Positions 8,068 to 16,920 of a stretch of 20,000 nt of DNA are shown piece after piece. A program made the position numbers and the translations under genes. Numbering within the stretch: position 1 is the stretch's first letter; every line of letters starts with the position of its first letter. Source of the stretch: an uncultured virus (IMG/VR IMGVR_UViG_3300009155_000060) (taxonomy: Duplodnaviria; Heunggongvirae; Uroviricota; Caudoviricetes); the IMG/VR virus record IMGVR_UViG_3300009155_000060; one strand, given 5' to 3'. The notes under the pieces are model-generated. The model worked only from the letters and a program-made list of their open reading frames with translations. It made no database searches and was not told the DNA's origin.

Positions 8068-8262
8068 ATGATCTATGCTCATAAATCTCAAGATGCTAGT
8101 GTAAGCCTACGAAGAGAAAATTTAATCGAGGAGATTAGAGAAAATCAACTATGGGGTAATATTCATCGAGCAGCCCTTACCAATCCTGCTTTACAAGAAG
8201 CCTTAGAGCGTGTTAAAATAATATACTACCTGAGTAAAGACAATGGCCGCAGCAAAACCTAA
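8068..8262 (+). CDS. Small hypothetical protein
   Basis: ~64-aa ORF filling the gap between neighbours; ATG 8068. Confidence 0.65.
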   Translation: MIYAHKSQDASVSLRRENLIEEIRENQLWGNIHRAALTNPALQEALERVKIIYYLSKDNGRSKT

Positions 8263-8725
8263 AAAGAAAAGAGAACTAGACCTCAATAGGGTGTTGTCTG
8301 CGATTGACTATAAAAATTATGATTTTTACAATTCATTGAATGAGAAAGAACTTAAAGAATTCAGCCCTTATGCACTGATGAGTTTTTCCAGTAATAGGTC
8401 TCATAATATTCCAGATGTAGAAGAATGGTATGTTGAGACTACCAATGAATTTGTGAATAAAAATCACTGGCAATTTGGGTCACGTCATAAAGAACTATTG
8501 TGGAAATTGTATGCAGCAACAGGAACCGGAGAGAAAACGGCCTATCAATATCTCAAACCATTAACAGTTGGCATTGATCGTTTTGAAAAATTACTGTGTG
8601 ATCTTTATCCTGCCTGGAAAATTGAAGATGTTAAATTACTAGCCAGTTTAATGACTCGAGAAGACCGACATGATCTGTTTGACAAAATGGGATTTGATGC
8701 AAAAGAAAGAAAAGAGTATGAGTAA
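8243..8725 (+). CDS. Probable clamp-loader small subunit (T4 gp62-like)
   Basis: Size (160 aa), FSPYALM..S and N...W.....HKELLWKL patterns resemble phage clamp-loader A subunits; replication-module context. Confidence 0.5.
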   Translation: MAAAKPKKKRELDLNRVLSAIDYKNYDFYNSLNEKELKEFSPYALMSFSSNRSHNIPDVEEWYVETTNEFVNKNHWQFGSRHKELLWKLYAATGTGEKTAYQYLKPLTVGIDRFEKLLCDLYPAWKIEDVKLLASLMTREDRHDLFDKMGFDAKERKEYE

Positions 8726-9416
8726 ACTGCTGTTGGCTCAACCCTTCAAATGTATGCATTGCGATAAAAGTTTTATGAAAGAAAAAACTTCGCTGGCTCA
8801 TATGTGTGAAAGAAAAAGGCGTGCCTTGCAGGAAAAAGAAAAACGTGTGCAGGCCGGATTTGTGGCATTTAATAGATTTTGGAAATTGACACAAGGTGCT
8901 AAAAAATCCAAGACCTACGAGGAATTCTGTGATAGCAGTTATTACAATGCCTTTGTAAAATTTGGCAGTTTCGTTAACAACGTAGATCCTCTTTATCCAG
9001 ATAGATTTGTTGACTATGTAATCAAAAGCGGTATAAAATTAGATCATTGGTGTCGTGATGAATTGTATGATCGGTACCTCTATGAAATGATCAAACTGGA
9101 ATCTGTGGAAGATGCTGTTCGAAGAAGTCTGCAGACCATGATGGAATGGGGTGATGAACACAACGCAAATTTTGCACATTATTTTAATTATGTAAGCCTG
9201 AGCCGAGCAGTACATGATATCAAGAATGGTAAAATTACTGCATGGCTTATTTTAAATAGCCAATCGGGAAAAAACATGATCAGTAAAATGAGCGATGAGC
9301 AACTGGATATGATTGCTCCGGCGTTTGATATTCAATTTTGGTTAAAGAAATTTAAGGAAACTCCGGCAGACGTTGCCCTAGTAAAAGAAATTGTTGAAGA
9401 GGTAGGAATAGAATGA
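8718..9416 (+). CDS. Hypothetical protein with N-terminal Zn finger (C-x2-C-x12-H-x-C)
   Basis: FKCMHCDKSFMKEKTSLAHMC; likely start ATG 8718. Confidence 0.7.
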   Translation: MSKLLLAQPFKCMHCDKSFMKEKTSLAHMCERKRRALQEKEKRVQAGFVAFNRFWKLTQGAKKSKTYEEFCDSSYYNAFVKFGSFVNNVDPLYPDRFVDYVIKSGIKLDHWCRDELYDRYLYEMIKLESVEDAVRRSLQTMMEWGDEHNANFAHYFNYVSLSRAVHDIKNGKITAWLILNSQSGKNMISKMSDEQLDMIAPAFDIQFWLKKFKETPADVALVKEIVEEVGIE

Positions 9417-9769
9417 GACTAGATGGGTTTGTAGAAAAGGGGTGGGGATATGAAAATATATGGGCCACTAACGACAAGTACTGCGGCAAATTGATGAAAT
9501 TCAATACTGGTGCTCAATTCAGTATGCATTTTCATTCAGCGAAAGATGAAACCTGGTATGTGTTAGATGGTAAATTCACTGTGAGATTCATAGATACTAC
9601 TACCGCTAAAATCAGTGAGCTATTACTGAATCCTGGAGATGTTTGGCACAATCCTCCGCTGCTGCCCCATCAACTGTATTGTATAGAAGAAGGAACTATC
9701 ATCGAATTAAGCACCGCTGATAGTGTTGAAGACAACTATCGAGTCCTGCCAGGAGACAGTCAACGATGA
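9413..9769 (+). CDS. Cupin-fold sugar isomerase-like protein
   Basis: VEKGWGYE, SMHFHSAKDETWYVLDG and PLLPHQL cupin motifs. Confidence 0.8.
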   Translation: MRLDGFVEKGWGYENIWATNDKYCGKLMKFNTGAQFSMHFHSAKDETWYVLDGKFTVRFIDTTTAKISELLLNPGDVWHNPPLLPHQLYCIEEGTIIELSTADSVEDNYRVLPGDSQR

Positions 9770-10167
9770 ACACAAAAGTATTTGTTAACGGCACCTTTGA
9801 CATACTGCACATAGGTCATTTAGCACTTCTAGAATATGCATTCAGTCACGGGGAAAAGTTGACAGTTGCCATAGACAGTGATCGTCGTATTCGTGAATTG
9901 AAAGGGATCGATAGACCCATAAACAACCAGCAAGACCGTAAAACCATGTTAGAATGTCTGTATATGGTTGACGAGGTATATGTTTTTGACACCGACGAAG
10001 AATTAGTAGAATTGATCAAACAACACTGTGATATAATGGTCAAAGGCAGTGATTATCAAGGACGACCTATTATAGGTTCAGAATATTGCAAAGAAATAAA
10101 ATTTTATGAACGAATTGAAAAATACTCAACCACAGAAATCATTCAACGTATTGCTAATCGGCGATAG
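9766..10167 (+). CDS. Cytidylyltransferase-family nucleotidyltransferase (HldC / RfaE domain II-like)
   Basis: NGTFDILHIGH (HxGH), DSD..IRELKG.DRPIN, VKGSDY, YSTT. Confidence 0.85.
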   Translation: MNTKVFVNGTFDILHIGHLALLEYAFSHGEKLTVAIDSDRRIRELKGIDRPINNQQDRKTMLECLYMVDEVYVFDTDEELVELIKQHCDIMVKGSDYQGRPIIGSEYCKEIKFYERIEKYSTTEIIQRIANRR

Positions 10168-10876
10168 TTGTATTGATGAATATTTCATAGGTACCTGTGA
10201 CAGACTTAGTCCTGAAGCACCTGTACCTGTTATGAAAATCAACAATCACTATACCACTCAAGGTATGGCTTCTAATGTGAAGAATAATTTTGCTAGTCTG
10301 GGAATAGAGGTTGATTTTATCACTAATGAGTCAGCAATTACCAAGACTAGATATATTGATCAAAGATCGGGGCAACATCTGTTAAGGGTAGATGACGAAC
10401 CTTACCTTCCAGAATGGTCTGGCCATATTACACATCCTTTGACAAATTATGATGTTGTAGTAATTTCAGATTATGACAAAGGTTTTATCACCTACGAACA
10501 CGTAGAAATCATTATCAAAGAATGTCATTGCCCTGTATTCATCGACAGTAAAAAAACTAACCTAGCCAGATTCGAAGGAGCATTTGTAAAAATCAACAAC
10601 AAAGAATTCAGTCTGGCCAAAACATTTTGCTCAAACATAATTACAACCATGGGAGATCAAGGTGCCAGATATAATGGTAAAATTTACCCAGCACCTAAGG
10701 TAGGACTGGTAGATGTCTGCGGAGCGGGAGATACTTTTTTGGCAGCATTGGTATACCAATATCTAATGACTTCTAGCGTAGAAGAAGCTATACTGTTTGC
10801 CAACAAGGCGGGAGCTGTGTCTGTTCAACATCAGGGAAACTACTCCCCTAGACTAGAAGAAATAAATGGATATTGA
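10106..10876 (+). CDS. PfkB-family sugar kinase (HldA / RfaE domain I-like)
   Basis: IGD..IDEY..G.CDRLSPEAPVPV, SDYDKG, DVCGAGDTFLA. Confidence 0.85.
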   Translation: MNELKNTQPQKSFNVLLIGDSCIDEYFIGTCDRLSPEAPVPVMKINNHYTTQGMASNVKNNFASLGIEVDFITNESAITKTRYIDQRSGQHLLRVDDEPYLPEWSGHITHPLTNYDVVVISDYDKGFITYEHVEIIIKECHCPVFIDSKKTNLARFEGAFVKINNKEFSLAKTFCSNIITTMGDQGARYNGKIYPAPKVGLVDVCGAGDTFLAALVYQYLMTSSVEEAILFANKAGAVSVQHQGNYSPRLEEINGY

Positions 10877-11441
10877 TTTAGATTTTGCGGACAGATCAAA
10901 AATACTTGACATTGTTCAGCATGTCCCTGCTTCCAGATTAGAAGATGGTGTTTTTAAAAAACACAATACAGGAGTCTATTGCCATACCATTCCCTACAAC
11001 CCTATTACTGGGCTCAGCAACATTGACTATAAAACGGCAGAAGGTAGAGGATACTTTAAGATAGATTTCCTCAATGTCAGTGTCTACCGAGATGTTAAAG
11101 ACAATCAACACCTTGAACAATTGATGTCAACTGAGCCTTTATGGGATCTATTAGAACAAGACGAATTTGTCGATCTCCTATTTCACGTCAATGGTCATGG
11201 ATCGACTTTACGACAAATGAAACCAAGAAACATAGAACAATTAGCTGCCGTACTGGCTATGATCAGACCAGGAAAAAAACATCTGATCGGTCAAGATTGG
11301 AACAGTGTGATGAAGGAAATTTGGATCAAACCAACGGGTGATGAATACTACTTTAAAAAGGCTCATGCCATCTCCTACGCTATGGTAGTCATGGTACATA
11401 TGAATCTTATCTGCGAGTCACTCAGCTACGAGTATTCTTAA
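10866..11441 (+). CDS. Miniature DNA polymerase III alpha (DnaE, C-family) catalytic fragment
   Basis: Ordered DnaE motifs: DIDLDF, KHNTGVY, YFKIDFLNV, LAAVLAMIRPG, YYFKKAHAISYA; only 191 aa. Confidence 0.8.
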   Translation: MDIDLDFADRSKILDIVQHVPASRLEDGVFKKHNTGVYCHTIPYNPITGLSNIDYKTAEGRGYFKIDFLNVSVYRDVKDNQHLEQLMSTEPLWDLLEQDEFVDLLFHVNGHGSTLRQMKPRNIEQLAAVLAMIRPGKKHLIGQDWNSVMKEIWIKPTGDEYYFKKAHAISYAMVVMVHMNLICESLSYEYS

Positions 11442-11809
11442 AGACCTTTAAGATTTCTAACCAGCTGAATGCTTTTTCTTTTAATTCGTTTTTCAGCAAT
11501 CTCGCTGAGATTAATTGTGGGCCCAAATATAATTTTAGTGTCTTTAGAATTAAAAGTCTTAATGTAAGTACGAAATGCAATCATTTCTTTTTTTAAAAAT
11601 ATATTAATAGGTATTTTACGATTGCTTTCCCACCACCAAACTTCGCCTAGCTCTAATAATAATTTTCTAGTGTCTTCGTCTATGATCATTCCTAGGTCAT
11701 AGATACTGGTCACATATGAATCGGCATTAAGTATGATTCCTACATACTCTTTTTCGTTTGACTTGACGCACGATATAAAGGGAAAGTTAACTTGAAATTG
11801 ATCTTTCAT
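11438..11809 (-). CDS. Hypothetical protein
   Basis: 123-aa ORF with WWWESNRKIPINIFL; TATAAATA on the minus strand at 11850-11857. Confidence 0.75.
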   Translation of the reverse strand: MKDQFQVNFPFISCVKSNEKEYVGIILNADSYVTSIYDLGMIIDEDTRKLLLELGEVWWWESNRKIPINIFLKKEMIAFRTYIKTFNSKDTKIIFGPTINLSEIAEKRIKRKSIQLVRNLKGL

Positions 11810-12674: not shown

Positions 12675-13658
12675 ATGCAAGGTCTACACACAGCTATTCT
12701 AGCTCTACTTCCGGCTCGCCGTAAAACCACCCCCAGTGGCTGGACGGGGTTTAATGCACCCTGCTGTCATCATCGAGGACATAGCAACGATACCAGACAG
12801 CGTGGAGGAATTTTGCTGACTCCAGAGGGCGGATTTACTTTTCACTGTTTTAACTGCAACTTCAAAGCAGGTTGGAGCCCGGGTAAACTGTTGAGCCAAA
12901 ATACCCGCAGTTTGTTTTCTTGGTTGGGCATGAGTCCACAGGAAATTCAAAAAATCAACTTGACTGCAATGAAGCAGCAGAGCATGGAAAAGACTCTACC
13001 CGGCCTAAATTTTGAACTAGAACAGAGGGCGTTGCCGGGAGATGCTAGACCACTGGCTCAATGGCCCGAGGAAGCAGTAGAATCAATCAAACAGTATATC
13101 CTAGATCGGGGATTAGGGCTAGATTGGTACCCATGGCATTGGACAGACGAAAAAGGCTATGCTGATCGTGTGCTGATACCTTTTTATCACATGGGCAAGA
13201 TTGTGGGCTATACGGCTCGTAAAATTACATCAGGTAAGCCCAAATATCTTACACATAGCCAACCAGGCTATGTGTTCAACATGGATCGACAGACTGACTA
13301 CTATGACAGGCACTATATCATAGTGGTAGAAGGACAAATGGATGCCATAGCCATAGACGGCGTGGCTATAATGAGCAATGATGTCAATGCCACACAGGCA
13401 GCTAGAATTTCTGCAGTCAACAGACAGGTCGTTGTGGTTCCTGATCGAGATCGAGCAGGTGCCAAACTGATCACAGCCGCATTAACTCATGAATGGTCAG
13501 TGAGCTTGCCACCGTGGGGCGACGATGTCAAAGATACAGCAGATGCGGTCAAGAAATATGGTAGACTATATACACTGACCACTATTCTGCACTACCGCGA
13601 AACAAATAAGATAAAAATACAACTGATGAAACGACAATTAGAGAGGCTTGATGAATAA
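12675..13658 (+). CDS. DNA primase (T4 gp61-like; Zn finger + TOPRIM)
   Basis: PCCHHRG...FHCFNC, RVLIPF, GYTAR, PKYL, IVVEGQMDA, PDRDRAG. Confidence 0.88.
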   Translation: MQGLHTAILALLPARRKTTPSGWTGFNAPCCHHRGHSNDTRQRGGILLTPEGGFTFHCFNCNFKAGWSPGKLLSQNTRSLFSWLGMSPQEIQKINLTAMKQQSMEKTLPGLNFELEQRALPGDARPLAQWPEEAVESIKQYILDRGLGLDWYPWHWTDEKGYADRVLIPFYHMGKIVGYTARKITSGKPKYLTHSQPGYVFNMDRQTDYYDRHYIIVVEGQMDAIAIDGVAIMSNDVNATQAARISAVNRQVVVVPDRDRAGAKLITAALTHEWSVSLPPWGDDVKDTADAVKKYGRLYTLTTILHYRETNKIKIQLMKRQLERLDE

Positions 13659-15066
13659 ACCTGACTATAACCTAGAAGTACAAAAACTCTATCTGGAGAT
13701 GTTTCTGTCCGATGCAGAATCATTTGCTCGATGTCAAAACATATTTGATCCGGAAAATTTTGATAGGCGGCTACAGGAGCAGGCCAAGTTCATCAACGAC
13801 TATGTAGACAAGTACAAGGTCATGCCAGACGCGGCCATTATCAATGCAGCCTTAGGCTGCGATCTAAAAACTGAAGTCTTGCCCAAAGAGCACTATGATT
13901 GGCTATTGGACGAATTTGAGCGATTCAGCAGACACAAAGGCCTTGAACGTGCCATTCTCAAATCAGCTGACCTGCTGGAAAGTGGCGAGTATGGTCCTGT
14001 AGAAAAGCTGATCAAAGATGCCATACAGATCAGCTTGAACAAAGACATGGGCACTGACTACTTTGCTGATCCTCGTGGTAGACTGGGTCTGCTCAAAGAC
14101 AGCAACGGACAGATTTCAACTGGCTGGCCCACCGTAGACAAAAAACTCTATGGCGGATTTAATCGAGGTGAGCTCAATATTTTCTGTGCGGCTTCAGGTG
14201 GGGGCAAAAGTCTGTTTCTGGCCAATCTGGGTGTAAACTGGGCCATGGCCGGACTTAATGTCATATACTTGACCTTTGAGCTTAGTGAAGCACTGGTAGC
14301 CATGCGATTAGACAGTATGGTCACTGGCATCTCAACTCGTGAGATTTTTCGCAGCATTGACGAAGTAGAACTCAAAGTTAAGATGGCCGGAAAACGAGCG
14401 GGAAGTGTACAGATCAAGTATATGCCCAGTGGGAAAAATTGCAACGATATTCGTGCCTATTTGAAAGAATATCAGGTCAAAAAAGGTCAAAAACCTGACG
14501 TTTTGTTAATAGATTACTTGGATTTGATGATGCCTTTAAGCGTGAAGGTGTCGCCCAGTGATCTGTTTGTTAAAGACAAATATGTGTCGGAAGAGATTCG
14601 TAACCTAGCAATGGAAACACAGTGTATTACTGTAACGGCCAGTCAGTTGAATCGAAGTGCGGTGGAGGAGATTGAATTTGATCACAGCCACATCAGTGGT
14701 GGACTATCCAAGATCATGACGGCAGACAATGTGATTGGTATCTTTACGTCACGTGCTATGAAAGAGCGAGGACGCTATCAAATACAGTTTATGAAAACTC
14801 GCAGCAGCAGTGGTGTAGGTCAAAAGGTTGATTTGGAGTTCAATGTGGAAACACTGCGTATACTTGATCTAGGAGAGGACGGTGAAACTGCTGCTAGTCC
14901 CAGTCTTCCTACCAGCAGTGTTTATCAAGGCCTAAAACGTACCAGTACAACTACCGCAGAACCAAATCCCACTGTGGGTTCACCGGTGCCTCGAGCTAAA
15001 CCTCAGGCTAAATCGGGTGCTGATATTAGAAACATGCTGGCCAGTCTCAACGCAGAACGAGACTAA
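13651..15066 (+). CDS. Replicative DnaB-like helicase (T4 gp41-like)
   Basis: ISTGW..VD..LYGG, Walker A ASGGGKS, TFELSE, IDYLDLM, TASQLNR, MKTRSS. Confidence 0.92.
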   Translation: MNKPDYNLEVQKLYLEMFLSDAESFARCQNIFDPENFDRRLQEQAKFINDYVDKYKVMPDAAIINAALGCDLKTEVLPKEHYDWLLDEFERFSRHKGLERAILKSADLLESGEYGPVEKLIKDAIQISLNKDMGTDYFADPRGRLGLLKDSNGQISTGWPTVDKKLYGGFNRGELNIFCAASGGGKSLFLANLGVNWAMAGLNVIYLTFELSEALVAMRLDSMVTGISTREIFRSIDEVELKVKMAGKRAGSVQIKYMPSGKNCNDIRAYLKEYQVKKGQKPDVLLIDYLDLMMPLSVKVSPSDLFVKDKYVSEEIRNLAMETQCITVTASQLNRSAVEEIEFDHSHISGGLSKIMTADNVIGIFTSRAMKERGRYQIQFMKTRSSSGVGQKVDLEFNVETLRILDLGEDGETAASPSLPTSSVYQGLKRTSTTTAEPNPTVGSPVPRAKPQAKSGADIRNMLASLNAERD

Positions 15067-15629
15067 AACCAGGAGGCGATCTGCTGTCGTGCATGTGATT
15101 CAATCACATGATGCCACTGCTCTTGGCCGTCTAGACCAAATACCAGGTCAAGGTCTGCAGGCACAGTACTCCAACTATGTGCTAGATCATGCCAAGGGGC
15201 ATCTCCTGATATTTCACCCTCTAGGTGTCCAGGAGGCCATTTTAGGAATCCAGCTATGGCACGATAGTGTTGTGGACCTTCACCTGCTGCAATGGCGGCC
15301 AACACACTGACGTCATTGCTGAGTCCTAGACAGTCGTTAATAGCGGTAGTGGTAGGAGACGTCCAATCTAGGCTGTGCAGCATCATGATACGATTGGTGT
15401 TTTCGCCACCTCCCATGTACAGGGGTTGATCTACATCCAAGGTCAAATCCATGTTGCTCATTACCGAGGCCAGTGTGCTGCCATTGTTCAGCTGTTTGTT
15501 GATCTGTAGACCCAGACTGCCGGTGTGATCTTGATCTATGACCAATACAACTCCGTGACTGAGGAATCCCTTGGCTCGTTTAGGATGTGCGGCCAGTAAA
15601 TGACCCTGATAATTTTCTATGTCTTCCAT
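15063..15629 (-). CDS. YqgE/AlgH (DUF179) family protein
   Basis: GHLLAAHP, GSLGLQINK, LYMGG, LHS, GFLKW.PGHLEGEI, W..VPA..DLVF; start ATG at 15629. Confidence 0.85.
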   Translation of the reverse strand: MEDIENYQGHLLAAHPKRAKGFLSHGVVLVIDQDHTGSLGLQINKQLNNGSTLASVMSNMDLTLDVDQPLYMGGGENTNRIMMLHSLDWTSPTTTAINDCLGLSNDVSVLAAIAAGEGPQHYRAIAGFLKWPPGHLEGEISGDAPWHDLAHSWSTVPADLDLVFGLDGQEQWHHVIESHARQQIASWF

Positions 15630-15634
15630 AATGA

Positions 15635-15652
15635 TATTTACACAAATAAATA
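15635..15652. promoter_or_regulatory. Back-to-back divergent TAAATA boxes in a 29-nt intergenic gap
   Basis: Minus-strand TAAATA (15635-15640)-5 nt-ATG 15629; plus-strand TAAATA (15647-15652)-6 nt-ATG 15659. Confidence 0.65.
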
Positions 15653-15658
15653 CCAATT

Positions 15659-16351
15659 ATGCTGATTCGAGAATTCATTAGCCCGGGCATAGAAGCCCAC
15701 CCCGAACTTAACAGTCTTTTGTGGTCTGATCAAGGTCAGTTAGATCCCATGGTCAGATCTCATTTGATTAAAATTGCCAATCATTTCAAACGATTTGTAG
15801 ATCTAGATTTTGAAGTATTGGACCTGCAGATCACCGGGGGACAGACTGGCCGATATTGGACCAAGCACAGTGACCTAGACCTGCACCTGATCACTGACTA
15901 CTCCAGTATCGACTGCGATCAAGAGCTGGCCGAACTGTTTGACACCAAACGGCTGTTGTACAAGCAGCAGCACAAGATTACCATACGCGGTATCCCGGTG
16001 GAACTTTACGTAGAAGACAGTAGAGAACCTGCCGTGGGCGGAGCCTATAGCCTGATCCGAGACCAATGGGTGCGACCCAGTACAGAACCACGAGGTCCTC
16101 TAGATCTTGATCGTGTGGCACAGTATGCGGCTCGTTGGCAACAGATCATACAGGCCACTACAGCGATCAATGACATTGACCAGGCTCGCAAAGTCATGTC
16201 AGTGTTAAAGGATTATCGTCGCAAGGGCCTGGCTCGTAGCGGTGAATATGGTGTGGCCAATTTGGTGTTCAAGAGCCTACGCAATTCTGGACTAGTAGAT
16301 CAGCTGCGACAGCAGATCACAGATCTAGAAGATGGACAGCTGAGCCTGTAG
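15659..16351 (+). CDS. Pol-beta superfamily nucleotidyltransferase-like protein
   Basis: ITGG-x9-SDLDLH and IPVELYVED give the G[GS]..DxD..E catalytic pattern. Confidence 0.7.
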   Translation: MLIREFISPGIEAHPELNSLLWSDQGQLDPMVRSHLIKIANHFKRFVDLDFEVLDLQITGGQTGRYWTKHSDLDLHLITDYSSIDCDQELAELFDTKRLLYKQQHKITIRGIPVELYVEDSREPAVGGAYSLIRDQWVRPSTEPRGPLDLDRVAQYAARWQQIIQATTAINDIDQARKVMSVLKDYRRKGLARSGEYGVANLVFKSLRNSGLVDQLRQQITDLEDGQLSL

Positions 16352-16885
16352 CTCAGCGGCCGATTCTACCAGCCGTTGAAAATTCTGTTCTAGTTCCTGG
16401 GCCGAAGCCACCACATCACGATTGACCACATGAAAAGCTCTACCGCCCACGGCACGCCACTCGATGCAGTTGGTCAGGCGATCATCGACTAAGATGTCTC
16501 CCGGACGGCAGTGATGTTGTTTGTCATGACTGTAGGGACCAAAATGTACGGCAATGTCAGGAAAATGATCCTGTACCCAAAGAATCTTGTCGTACTGTGC
16601 CCAAGGCATGTCATTGAGCCTGGGAATGGCCGTTAAGAACAGCAGCCGCCAGCCCAATCGATCTCTGTACTGTCGTGCGGTGTTGACCAACTGCCAGCAG
16701 CCCGCCATAGGTGGCAGATCACGATAAAAGCGTTCTATGTCACGAATCTTTGGCCATTCATCGCCCACAAAACTGAAAATTCCATCTTGTGTATAGCCGG
16801 ATAGATCACGTCCTAGGTGCTGTGCGGCCATGGCATCAAAGTCTGCTACCACGCCATCCATGTCAAGATACAGTGTTGGTGTCAT
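16325..16885 (-). CDS. HAD-superfamily 5'(3')-deoxyribonucleotidase-like protein
   Basis: LYLDMDGVVADF, FLTA, K..WV, DILVDDR..N..EW...GG; start at 16885 or 16909. Confidence 0.85.
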   Translation of the reverse strand: MTPTLYLDMDGVVADFDAMAAQHLGRDLSGYTQDGIFSFVGDEWPKIRDIERFYRDLPPMAGCWQLVNTARQYRDRLGWRLLFLTAIPRLNDMPWAQYDKILWVQDHFPDIAVHFGPYSHDKQHHCRPGDILVDDRLTNCIEWRAVGGRAFHVVNRDVVASAQELEQNFQRLVESAAELQAQLSIF

Positions 16886-16920
16886 AAAAATCCCCGTAGT
16901 ATAGACCATTACTTAGCTGT

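Follow-up and report, generated by a model that had tools for sequence, protein, structure and literature searches.

The window analysed here is a 20,000-nt stretch of DNA from an uncultured virus of the Caudoviricetes (IMG/VR record IMGVR_UViG_3300009155_000060). Positions 10866–11441 of its plus strand hold an intact open reading frame (ORF) for a 191-residue protein with the N-terminus M-D-I-D-L-D-F. The ORF shares 11 nt with the PfkB-type kinase gene upstream, and at its 3′ end it has 4 nt in common with the stop of a convergent gene; the product is a small standalone protein, bounded by other genes and devoid of the remaining domains found in DNA polymerase III (Pol III). Judged by sequence and predicted structure, the ORF is a real gene, and its product is the metal-binding half of a miniature enzyme that is encoded by two genes and related to the replicative DNA polymerase of bacteria. 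The features of the locus are listed below, with residue numbers of the 191-residue protein and of the E. coli enzyme.

8243..8725, plus strand: phrog_11758 gene, a conserved neighbour on the upstream side that probably encodes the small subunit of the clamp loader (69/72 loci)
8670..9416, plus strand: phrog_11058 gene, with a zinc-finger-like N-terminal segment and a helical body, the most constant neighbour (72/72 loci)
9413..10876, plus strand: genes for a cupin, a cytidylyltransferase-like protein and a PfkB kinase, which form an accessory cassette, occupy a variable slot and lie outside the system (11–12/72 loci)
10866..11441, plus strand: 191-aa protein, predicted C-terminal unit of a split minimal Pol III alpha, with shortened fingers and the palm strands that carry three Asp (profile, PHROG and model)
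10869..10883, plus strand: D2-x-D4-x-D6, equivalent to E. coli D401 and D403 (catalytic) and D405 (DnaE-type; Asn in PolC) (alignment and model)
11058..11066, plus strand: K65-I66-D67, in which D67 is the third catalytic Asp, E. coli D555 (alignment)
11141..11341, plus strand: ORF of 66 codons that lies within the mini-DnaE gene in a shifted frame, candidate overprinted gene (strong stop avoidance in close relatives)
11265..11276, plus strand: R134-P135-x-K137, closing the retained first finger segment, E. coli R639-P640 (conservation)
11346..11378, plus strand: Y161..K164-K165-A166-H167..Y171, nucleotide-binding helix, with H167 at the position of the E. coli steric gate H760 (alignment)
11438..11809, minus strand: phrog_11637 gene, convergent conserved neighbour (69/71 loci)
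12675..15066, plus strand: DnaG-type primase and DnaB-like helicase genes, conserved downstream neighbours (69/71 and 63/71 loci)

PHROG 11778, annotated as 'DNA polymerase', matches residues 1–185 of the protein (5e-67), and Pfam gave solely a sub-threshold match to a finger domain. A phage collection returned 96 records at E≤1e-5, 94 of which cover at least 80% of the query, and the matches include Phosso, Atu_ph07, PA5oct/Paride, 121Q, RaK2, GAP32 and their relatives. At E≤0.001, 426 homologs were found in a 50%-cluster library and at least 8000 in a large protein search, where all 8000 candidates scored were hits. When a profile of 101 homologs was compared with the PDB, nine sequences were matched at E≤0.01, all of them Pol III alpha, over segments corresponding to E. 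coli residues 399–418, 538–641 and 741–768, the first and third of which are weak taken singly. The AlphaFold model of the protein has a pLDDT of 96.5 and a pTM of 0.88, and Foldseek gave six matches at E≤0.001, all to T. aquaticus Pol III alpha. Residues 1–188 of the model align to E. coli 401–781 (Z 9.3, rmsd 3.8, 180 residues aligned), and therefore about 200 residues are deleted inside this span. Nothing beyond E. coli residue ~781 is represented, and the parts deleted inside the span are presumably the thumb region and most of the index finger. Among 48,161 chains compared, the top seven were all Pol III alpha or PolC; these are C-family DNA polymerases, no other fold exceeds Z 5, and the row that follows stands at Z 4.1. 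This ranking agrees with the DnaE likeness that an initial annotation, made from the DNA sequence, had noted for the gene.

The DnaE motifs named in that annotation are present in the order given (H33..G36, K65-D67, R134-P135 and Y161-F163-K165-H167..Y171). The N-terminal D-x-D supplies the first two catalytic Asp (E. coli D401 and D403), so that all three catalytic Asp (D2, D4 and D67) lie on one chain. D6 corresponds to D405, a DnaE-type residue (PMC3919608), and H167 to H760, the E. coli steric gate (PMC8485763). The likeness to bacterial DnaE (E. coli 2HNH, T. aquaticus 3E0D and M. tuberculosis 5LEW) covers the palm fold with D401/D403/D555 and D405, the K-x-D and R-P motifs, and the helix with K758 and H760. 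In canonical DnaE a single chain holds the PHP, thumb and (HhH)2 parts together with a clamp motif and an OB (PMC3919608), whereas the phage enzyme has no PHP, HhH, clamp motif, OB or CTD and comprises ~360 residues in two chains, compared to 1160 in bacterial DnaE. Further differences are the deletions inside 401–781, the absence of the R709/R710 region, and the replacement of R390 by Glu in the N-halves of relatives. The 191-residue protein had been described as devoid of PHP, HhH, OB and the GRGS segment, which is what we found; in a six-frame scan of the window, neither GRGS nor a match to the N-half profile was detected.

The first alignment used to assess conservation was pre-filtered on the N-terminal Asp motif, which made the invariance of D2, D4 and D6 in it circular, and residues were therefore recounted with a length filter alone (175–235 aa), keeping 90 of 150 listed 50%-cluster representatives. 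All three Asp are kept in 88 of these 90, and the two misses have no homologous N-terminus. D2 and D4 are each found in 88, D6 in 86, K65, D67 and R134 in all 90, P135 in 89, K137 in 80 and H167 in 87. Compared to its nearest relatives, the gene shows 32 synonymous and 6 non-synonymous differences (dN/dS 0.042). Across 86 sequences, 3655 pairs were formed, of which 2554 were saturated and 10 too close; the 1091 usable pairs have a median dN/dS of 0.147 and a maximum of 0.30. The low dN/dS indicates that the gene is not decaying, and the earlier view of an intact gene rather than a decayed relic agrees with purifying selection at a dN/dS of 0.04–0.15. 

In jumbo phages of group 2.2, a minimal DNA polymerase III alpha that is split into two units has been described computationally (Iyer et al. 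2021, PMC7824862), and on profile and fold evidence the ORF at 10866–11441 is the C-terminal unit of this family. The novelty implied by the initial annotation is not supported, given this description. As in the group 2.2 jumbo phages (named members are Atu_ph07, 121Q, RaK2, GAP32, PA5oct/Paride and Phosso), the unit is a standalone C-terminal Mg2+/template-binding unit, it is 35–54% identical to the C-units of cultured phages over nearly its whole length, and nothing in the protein is different. The likeness extends to T4-like gp32, UvsX, UvsW, primase and DnaB genes nearby. In relatives, a separate N-terminal NTP-binding unit and a B-family polymerase (PolB) are encoded in the same genomes. 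The window copy differs from group 2.2 phages in lying behind an accessory sugar-nucleotide cassette and in holding a nested ORF, which is closed in Phosso, Paride and 121Q. Fused forms, clustered arrangements and the nested ORF are not mentioned in the accessible text of PMC7824862, and that of PMC12926913 contains nothing on the family. No bench test of the split mini-polymerase family was found in the literature searched, which mostly does not include subscription journals.

The initial annotation had raised the possibility that the protein is half of a split minimal C-family polymerase with a GRGS-bearing partner encoded elsewhere, and this proposal gained support from a partner gene in relatives, from co-folding and from natural fusions of the two halves. 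Neither a GRGS-bearing N-half nor a PolB was found in the window, and the nearest record (G001, 14 kb) has the C-half and no match to the N-half. The N-half is a GRGS protein of 161–180 aa in three of three cultured phages; it was found in neither of two short fragments. It is present in 5 of 11 IMG/VR records searched, namely the five longest, the misses being 15–43% complete, and in four of five further records of relatives. The N-half profile maps to E. coli residues 321–392, and the C-half chain begins at 401. In 73 of 80 loci the N-half ends 33 residues after GRG, a fixed break point.

The distance between the halves is 17–224 kb in seven records. Distant genes are also what is in print for the split enzyme, whereas 2 of 139 C-half loci carry both halves in one co-directional block of ~6–7 kb (L237:2392–8567 and L240:1512–8477). 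These compact blocks consist of the N-half, a GroES-like gene, an RFC-like gene, phrog_11758, phrog_11058 and the C-half; the GroES and RFC labels are putative and were assigned from motifs. The N-half is followed by a conserved gene of 70–150 aa and the GroES-like gene in L010, L011, L012, L104–L108, L237 and L240, and the GroES-like gene beside the N-half is annotated as 'chaperonin' in PA5oct.

A cognate pair of N- and C-half from one record of a relative, the C-half of which is 71% identical to that of the window, co-folds with a score of 0.92, against 0.00 for the best of three controls. The runs agree in at least 99% of contacts, the pLDDT of the partner is at least 92, and the mark applied was reached by 116 of 157 solved pairs and 2 of 215 mismatched pairs. 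The co-fold is support for binding rather than a demonstration of it, because likeness to solved DnaE structures can be enough for two halves of one split gene to pass.

A check for a separate PolB had also been suggested, and one was found in relatives carrying the C-half, including all three cultured phages. Among the 11 IMG/VR records it is present in four, including the single complete record, and it was not found in G008, an 83%-complete record. Motifs A, B and C were all seen in three IMG/VR records and in Paride, and two of the three in the stretches of the 121Q and Phosso PolB that were examined. The Paride PolB (L014/L016) is found in two open frames of 825 and 379 aa, ~2.5 kb apart, and its frame diverges directly after motif C, as though an intron or intein lay in between.

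Three proteins join the halves in a single chain. P0198 (375 aa) has the C-unit at residues 191–371 and a full N-unit ahead of it (probability 99.8, 173 columns), and P0284 and P0285, both of 376 aa, are fused in the same way, with 81% and 78% identity. One sequencing slip is ruled out, since the three fusions are alike and come from separate clusters. The fusion loci were not found in viral_contigs, and a word-index search for longer fused forms gave none among 362 candidates; this blank is no evidence, because fusions exist. A quick tree of 107 C-units groups the three fusions as a clade of their own (support 100), nested with nine split C-halves in a wider clade of support 99, and the records found with the alignment of these sister C-halves are still split. 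The fusions are nested in a clade of split forms and are thus not evidence of an unsplit ancestor; in this tree they look like secondary re-fusion, unless the root falls on the fusion branch. No report of fusions of both halves was found in the literature searched, where subscription journals are sparsely covered.

The gene neighbourhood was compared across 89 loci, 87 with an ORF call, which are not independent; at least 5 kb of upstream sequence was available for 72 and at least 2.5 kb of downstream sequence for 71. Upstream, phrog_11058 occurs in all 72, UvsW in 70 and phrog_11758 in 69, compared to 12 for the cupin, 12 for the cytidylyltransferase and 11 for PfkB. Downstream, the convergent phrog_11637 gene and the primase are each found in 69 loci and DnaB in 63. 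The constant neighbours of the C-half are replisome genes, and this association holds from freshwater phages to those of enterobacteria and Pseudomonas. The gene set of gp32-type SSB, UvsW helicase, DnaB and DnaG primase has the same order in the window as in cultured phages.

The phrog_11758 gene probably encodes a clamp-loader small subunit, as suggested by matches of 6 of 48 family members to the phrog_225 clamp loader (best 1.3e-8); it lies downstream of the RFC-like gene in L237 and L240. For the phrog_11058 gene (8670–9416), the Met at 8718 appears to be the likelier start. Its product gives a confident helical model, for which Foldseek gave no match at E≤0.001, and no profile support for gp59 was obtained. 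T4 gp59, which has a helical fold of two domains, ranks 16th against this model (Z 3.8, rmsd 11.8), with 164 residues aligned, the longest of 50 rows, and a gp59-like helicase loader is a weak lead from this comparison. Family and structure searches with phrog_11637 gave no lead; the gene is convergent and nearly abuts the C-half in most loci, and its product has a conserved W-W and a basic C-terminal tail. Past DnaB lie an AlgH-like DUF179 gene (15063–15656, minus strand), a phrog_36119 gene (15659–16351, plus strand) and a 5′-nucleotidase-like gene (16325–16909, minus strand). In two lake metatranscriptomes, 5–6% of the sequence words were present, and a 681-nt contig covers positions 10406–11086 at ~94% identity, although a contig in an RNA library is not proof of transcription.

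Inside the C-half gene, 65 of 75 distinct relatives have an ATG followed by 55 or more open codons in the nested frame, compared to 1.1% of synonymous recodings; relatives share ancestry, which limits how these counts can be read. Within residues 92–152, 37 of 4697 codon junctions carry a stop in the nested frame, compared to 1224 of 9777 outside, whereas the other shifted frame has stops at 601 of 4697 junctions inside the same residues. Stop-creating T at third positions accounts for 37 of 553 cases inside and 1224 of 2085 outside. The ORF is open with an ATG in 66 of 77 close relatives and in 3 of 27 more distant ones. Of the 77, 59 have a Shine-Dalgarno-like word, which may stem from Met-Glu codons of the main frame, and no such word was found for the window copy. 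Synonymous diversity of the main frame is higher inside the nested ORF than outside (0.56 vs 0.48, p=0.003); since it is not reduced, there is no support for constraint on the sequence of the nested peptide. The codon pattern looks like that of a clade-limited overprinted gene, which is a question separate from the polymerase. No report of a nested gene in this family was found in the literature searched.

Combining the sequence and model evidence, we consider it somewhat probable that the two halves form a thumb-less, distributive two-subunit DNA polymerase of DnaE type that serves primer extension or gap filling. The 191-residue catalytic subunit would bring the three metal-binding Asp and the nucleotide-binding finger helix, and the partner of ~165–180 aa, from its separate gene, would add the GRGS phosphate-binding motif and complete the palm. 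Synthesis would be distributive and without proofreading, because the thumb region, PHP/exonuclease, clamp motif and OB are missing, and dNTPs would be selected, because the steric-gate His is kept. The heterodimer would bind DNA weakly and add short templated tracts of dNMPs at the phage replisome.

Our first choice for its role, by analogy, would be the extension of RNA primers made by the primase, followed by hand-over to the processive PolB; the second would be filling of short gaps during recombination-dependent replication. The neighbourhood fits priming and repair alike and does not separate them. T4 PolB extends RNA primers unaided, and for this reason the need for a second enzyme is not established. 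In B. subtilis, DnaE extends the primer and then hands over to PolC (PMC3919608). The functional analogy lies in a C-family enzyme working beside a second, processive replicase; DnaE3 is a full-length single chain paired with PolC, whereas the partner replicase of the split enzyme would be of the B family.

In bacterial DnaE, dATP is reported to be contacted by four Arg, R362, R390, R709 and R710 (PMC4374717). R362 alone is kept, on the N-halves of relatives, and its invariance is circular because the motif was part of the search pattern for N-halves. All 83 N-halves have an acidic residue in the R390 column (81 Glu and 2 Asp), and the stretch 642–740, with R709 and R710, has no counterpart in the C-half. 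Directly behind its final F-L, each of the 83 N-halves has an Arg or a Lys. This terminal basic residue, together with K137 and K164, both of them well conserved, may stand in for the lost Arg.

A first alternative is that the heterodimer keeps the pol-beta-like chemistry and has been repurposed as a template-independent or non-replicative nucleotidyltransferase, acting in end tailing, as source of a nucleotide signal, or in nucleotidylation of protein or RNA. The parts with which DnaE grips DNA are gone, three of the four dATP-contacting Arg are lost or charge-reversed, and a complete PolB is already present in relatives, all of which would suit such an enzyme. However, the finger helix and the steric-gate His (87/90) are kept, every fold match above Z 5 is a C-family DNA polymerase, and the gene stays among replisome genes across distant phage groups; we regard this reading as unlikely, though it is the strongest competitor of a templated polymerase. 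Less probable again is that the enzyme serves as core of a second, processive replicase for one strand, in which neighbours such as phrog_11058 or the phage clamp would replace the thumb and clamp-binding parts. The linkage of phrog_11058 in every locus, its zinc-finger-like segment and the clamp-loader-like gene adjoining it speak for this idea, but neither half has a proofreading domain or a clamp motif, and phrog_11058 shows no structural likeness to a polymerase part (best Z 4.7). A protein without catalytic activity that binds replisome parts or host factors through a DnaE-like surface, as scaffold or mimic, would account for the loss of Arg residues and DNA-binding regions; it is improbable, since the three Asp, K65, R134 and H167, none of which a scaffold needs, are the best-kept residues across proteins 30–60% alike.

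Joint work with the upstream sugar-nucleotide genes in DNA modification had been hinted at in the initial annotation from the position of the gene at the end of this operon. The 11-nt overlap with the PfkB gene and the presence of PfkB directly upstream in 13 of 82 loci are in keeping with this reading, but the gene directly upstream is phrog_11058 in 46 and an unrelated ORF in 21, and the cassette is absent at the C-half locus in the three cultured phages viewed (Phosso, Paride and 121Q). Occurring in just 11–12 of 72 loci, compared to 72 of 72 for phrog_11058, the cassette appears to be cargo in a variable slot; synteny thus largely refutes the DNA-modification reading, to which we give very little credence, and the hint from operon position is not supported. 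The cupin, cytidylyltransferase-like and PfkB genes (9413–10876) resemble a split heptose kinase/adenylyltransferase set. Finally, a decayed remnant of a host dnaE, to which the short length and large deletions might point, can be practically dismissed given the at least 8000 homologs, the 94 phage records covering at least 80% of the query, the strong purifying selection and the fixed break point.

To return to the favoured two-subunit polymerase, we tentatively put forward a more specific picture, which as a whole is rather less likely to be right than wrong. The halves would form an active, thumb-less C-family polymerase of ~360 residues that acts as a Pol alpha-like primer extender in a PolB replisome, with a triphosphate site rebuilt from two finger Lys and the basic residue in which the N-half ends; a ready single-chain version of it would be the natural 375-aa fusion, and the second, inner gene of 66 codons in the freshwater clade would be translated.

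With the family already in print, the gene itself is no surprise. If active, the enzyme would mark the minimal catalytic core within the bacterial replicase family, and the retention of two polymerase families by these jumbo phages would be explained. Direct tests of this activity are possible with the single-chain fusions and with the compact genomes that carry both halves in one block.
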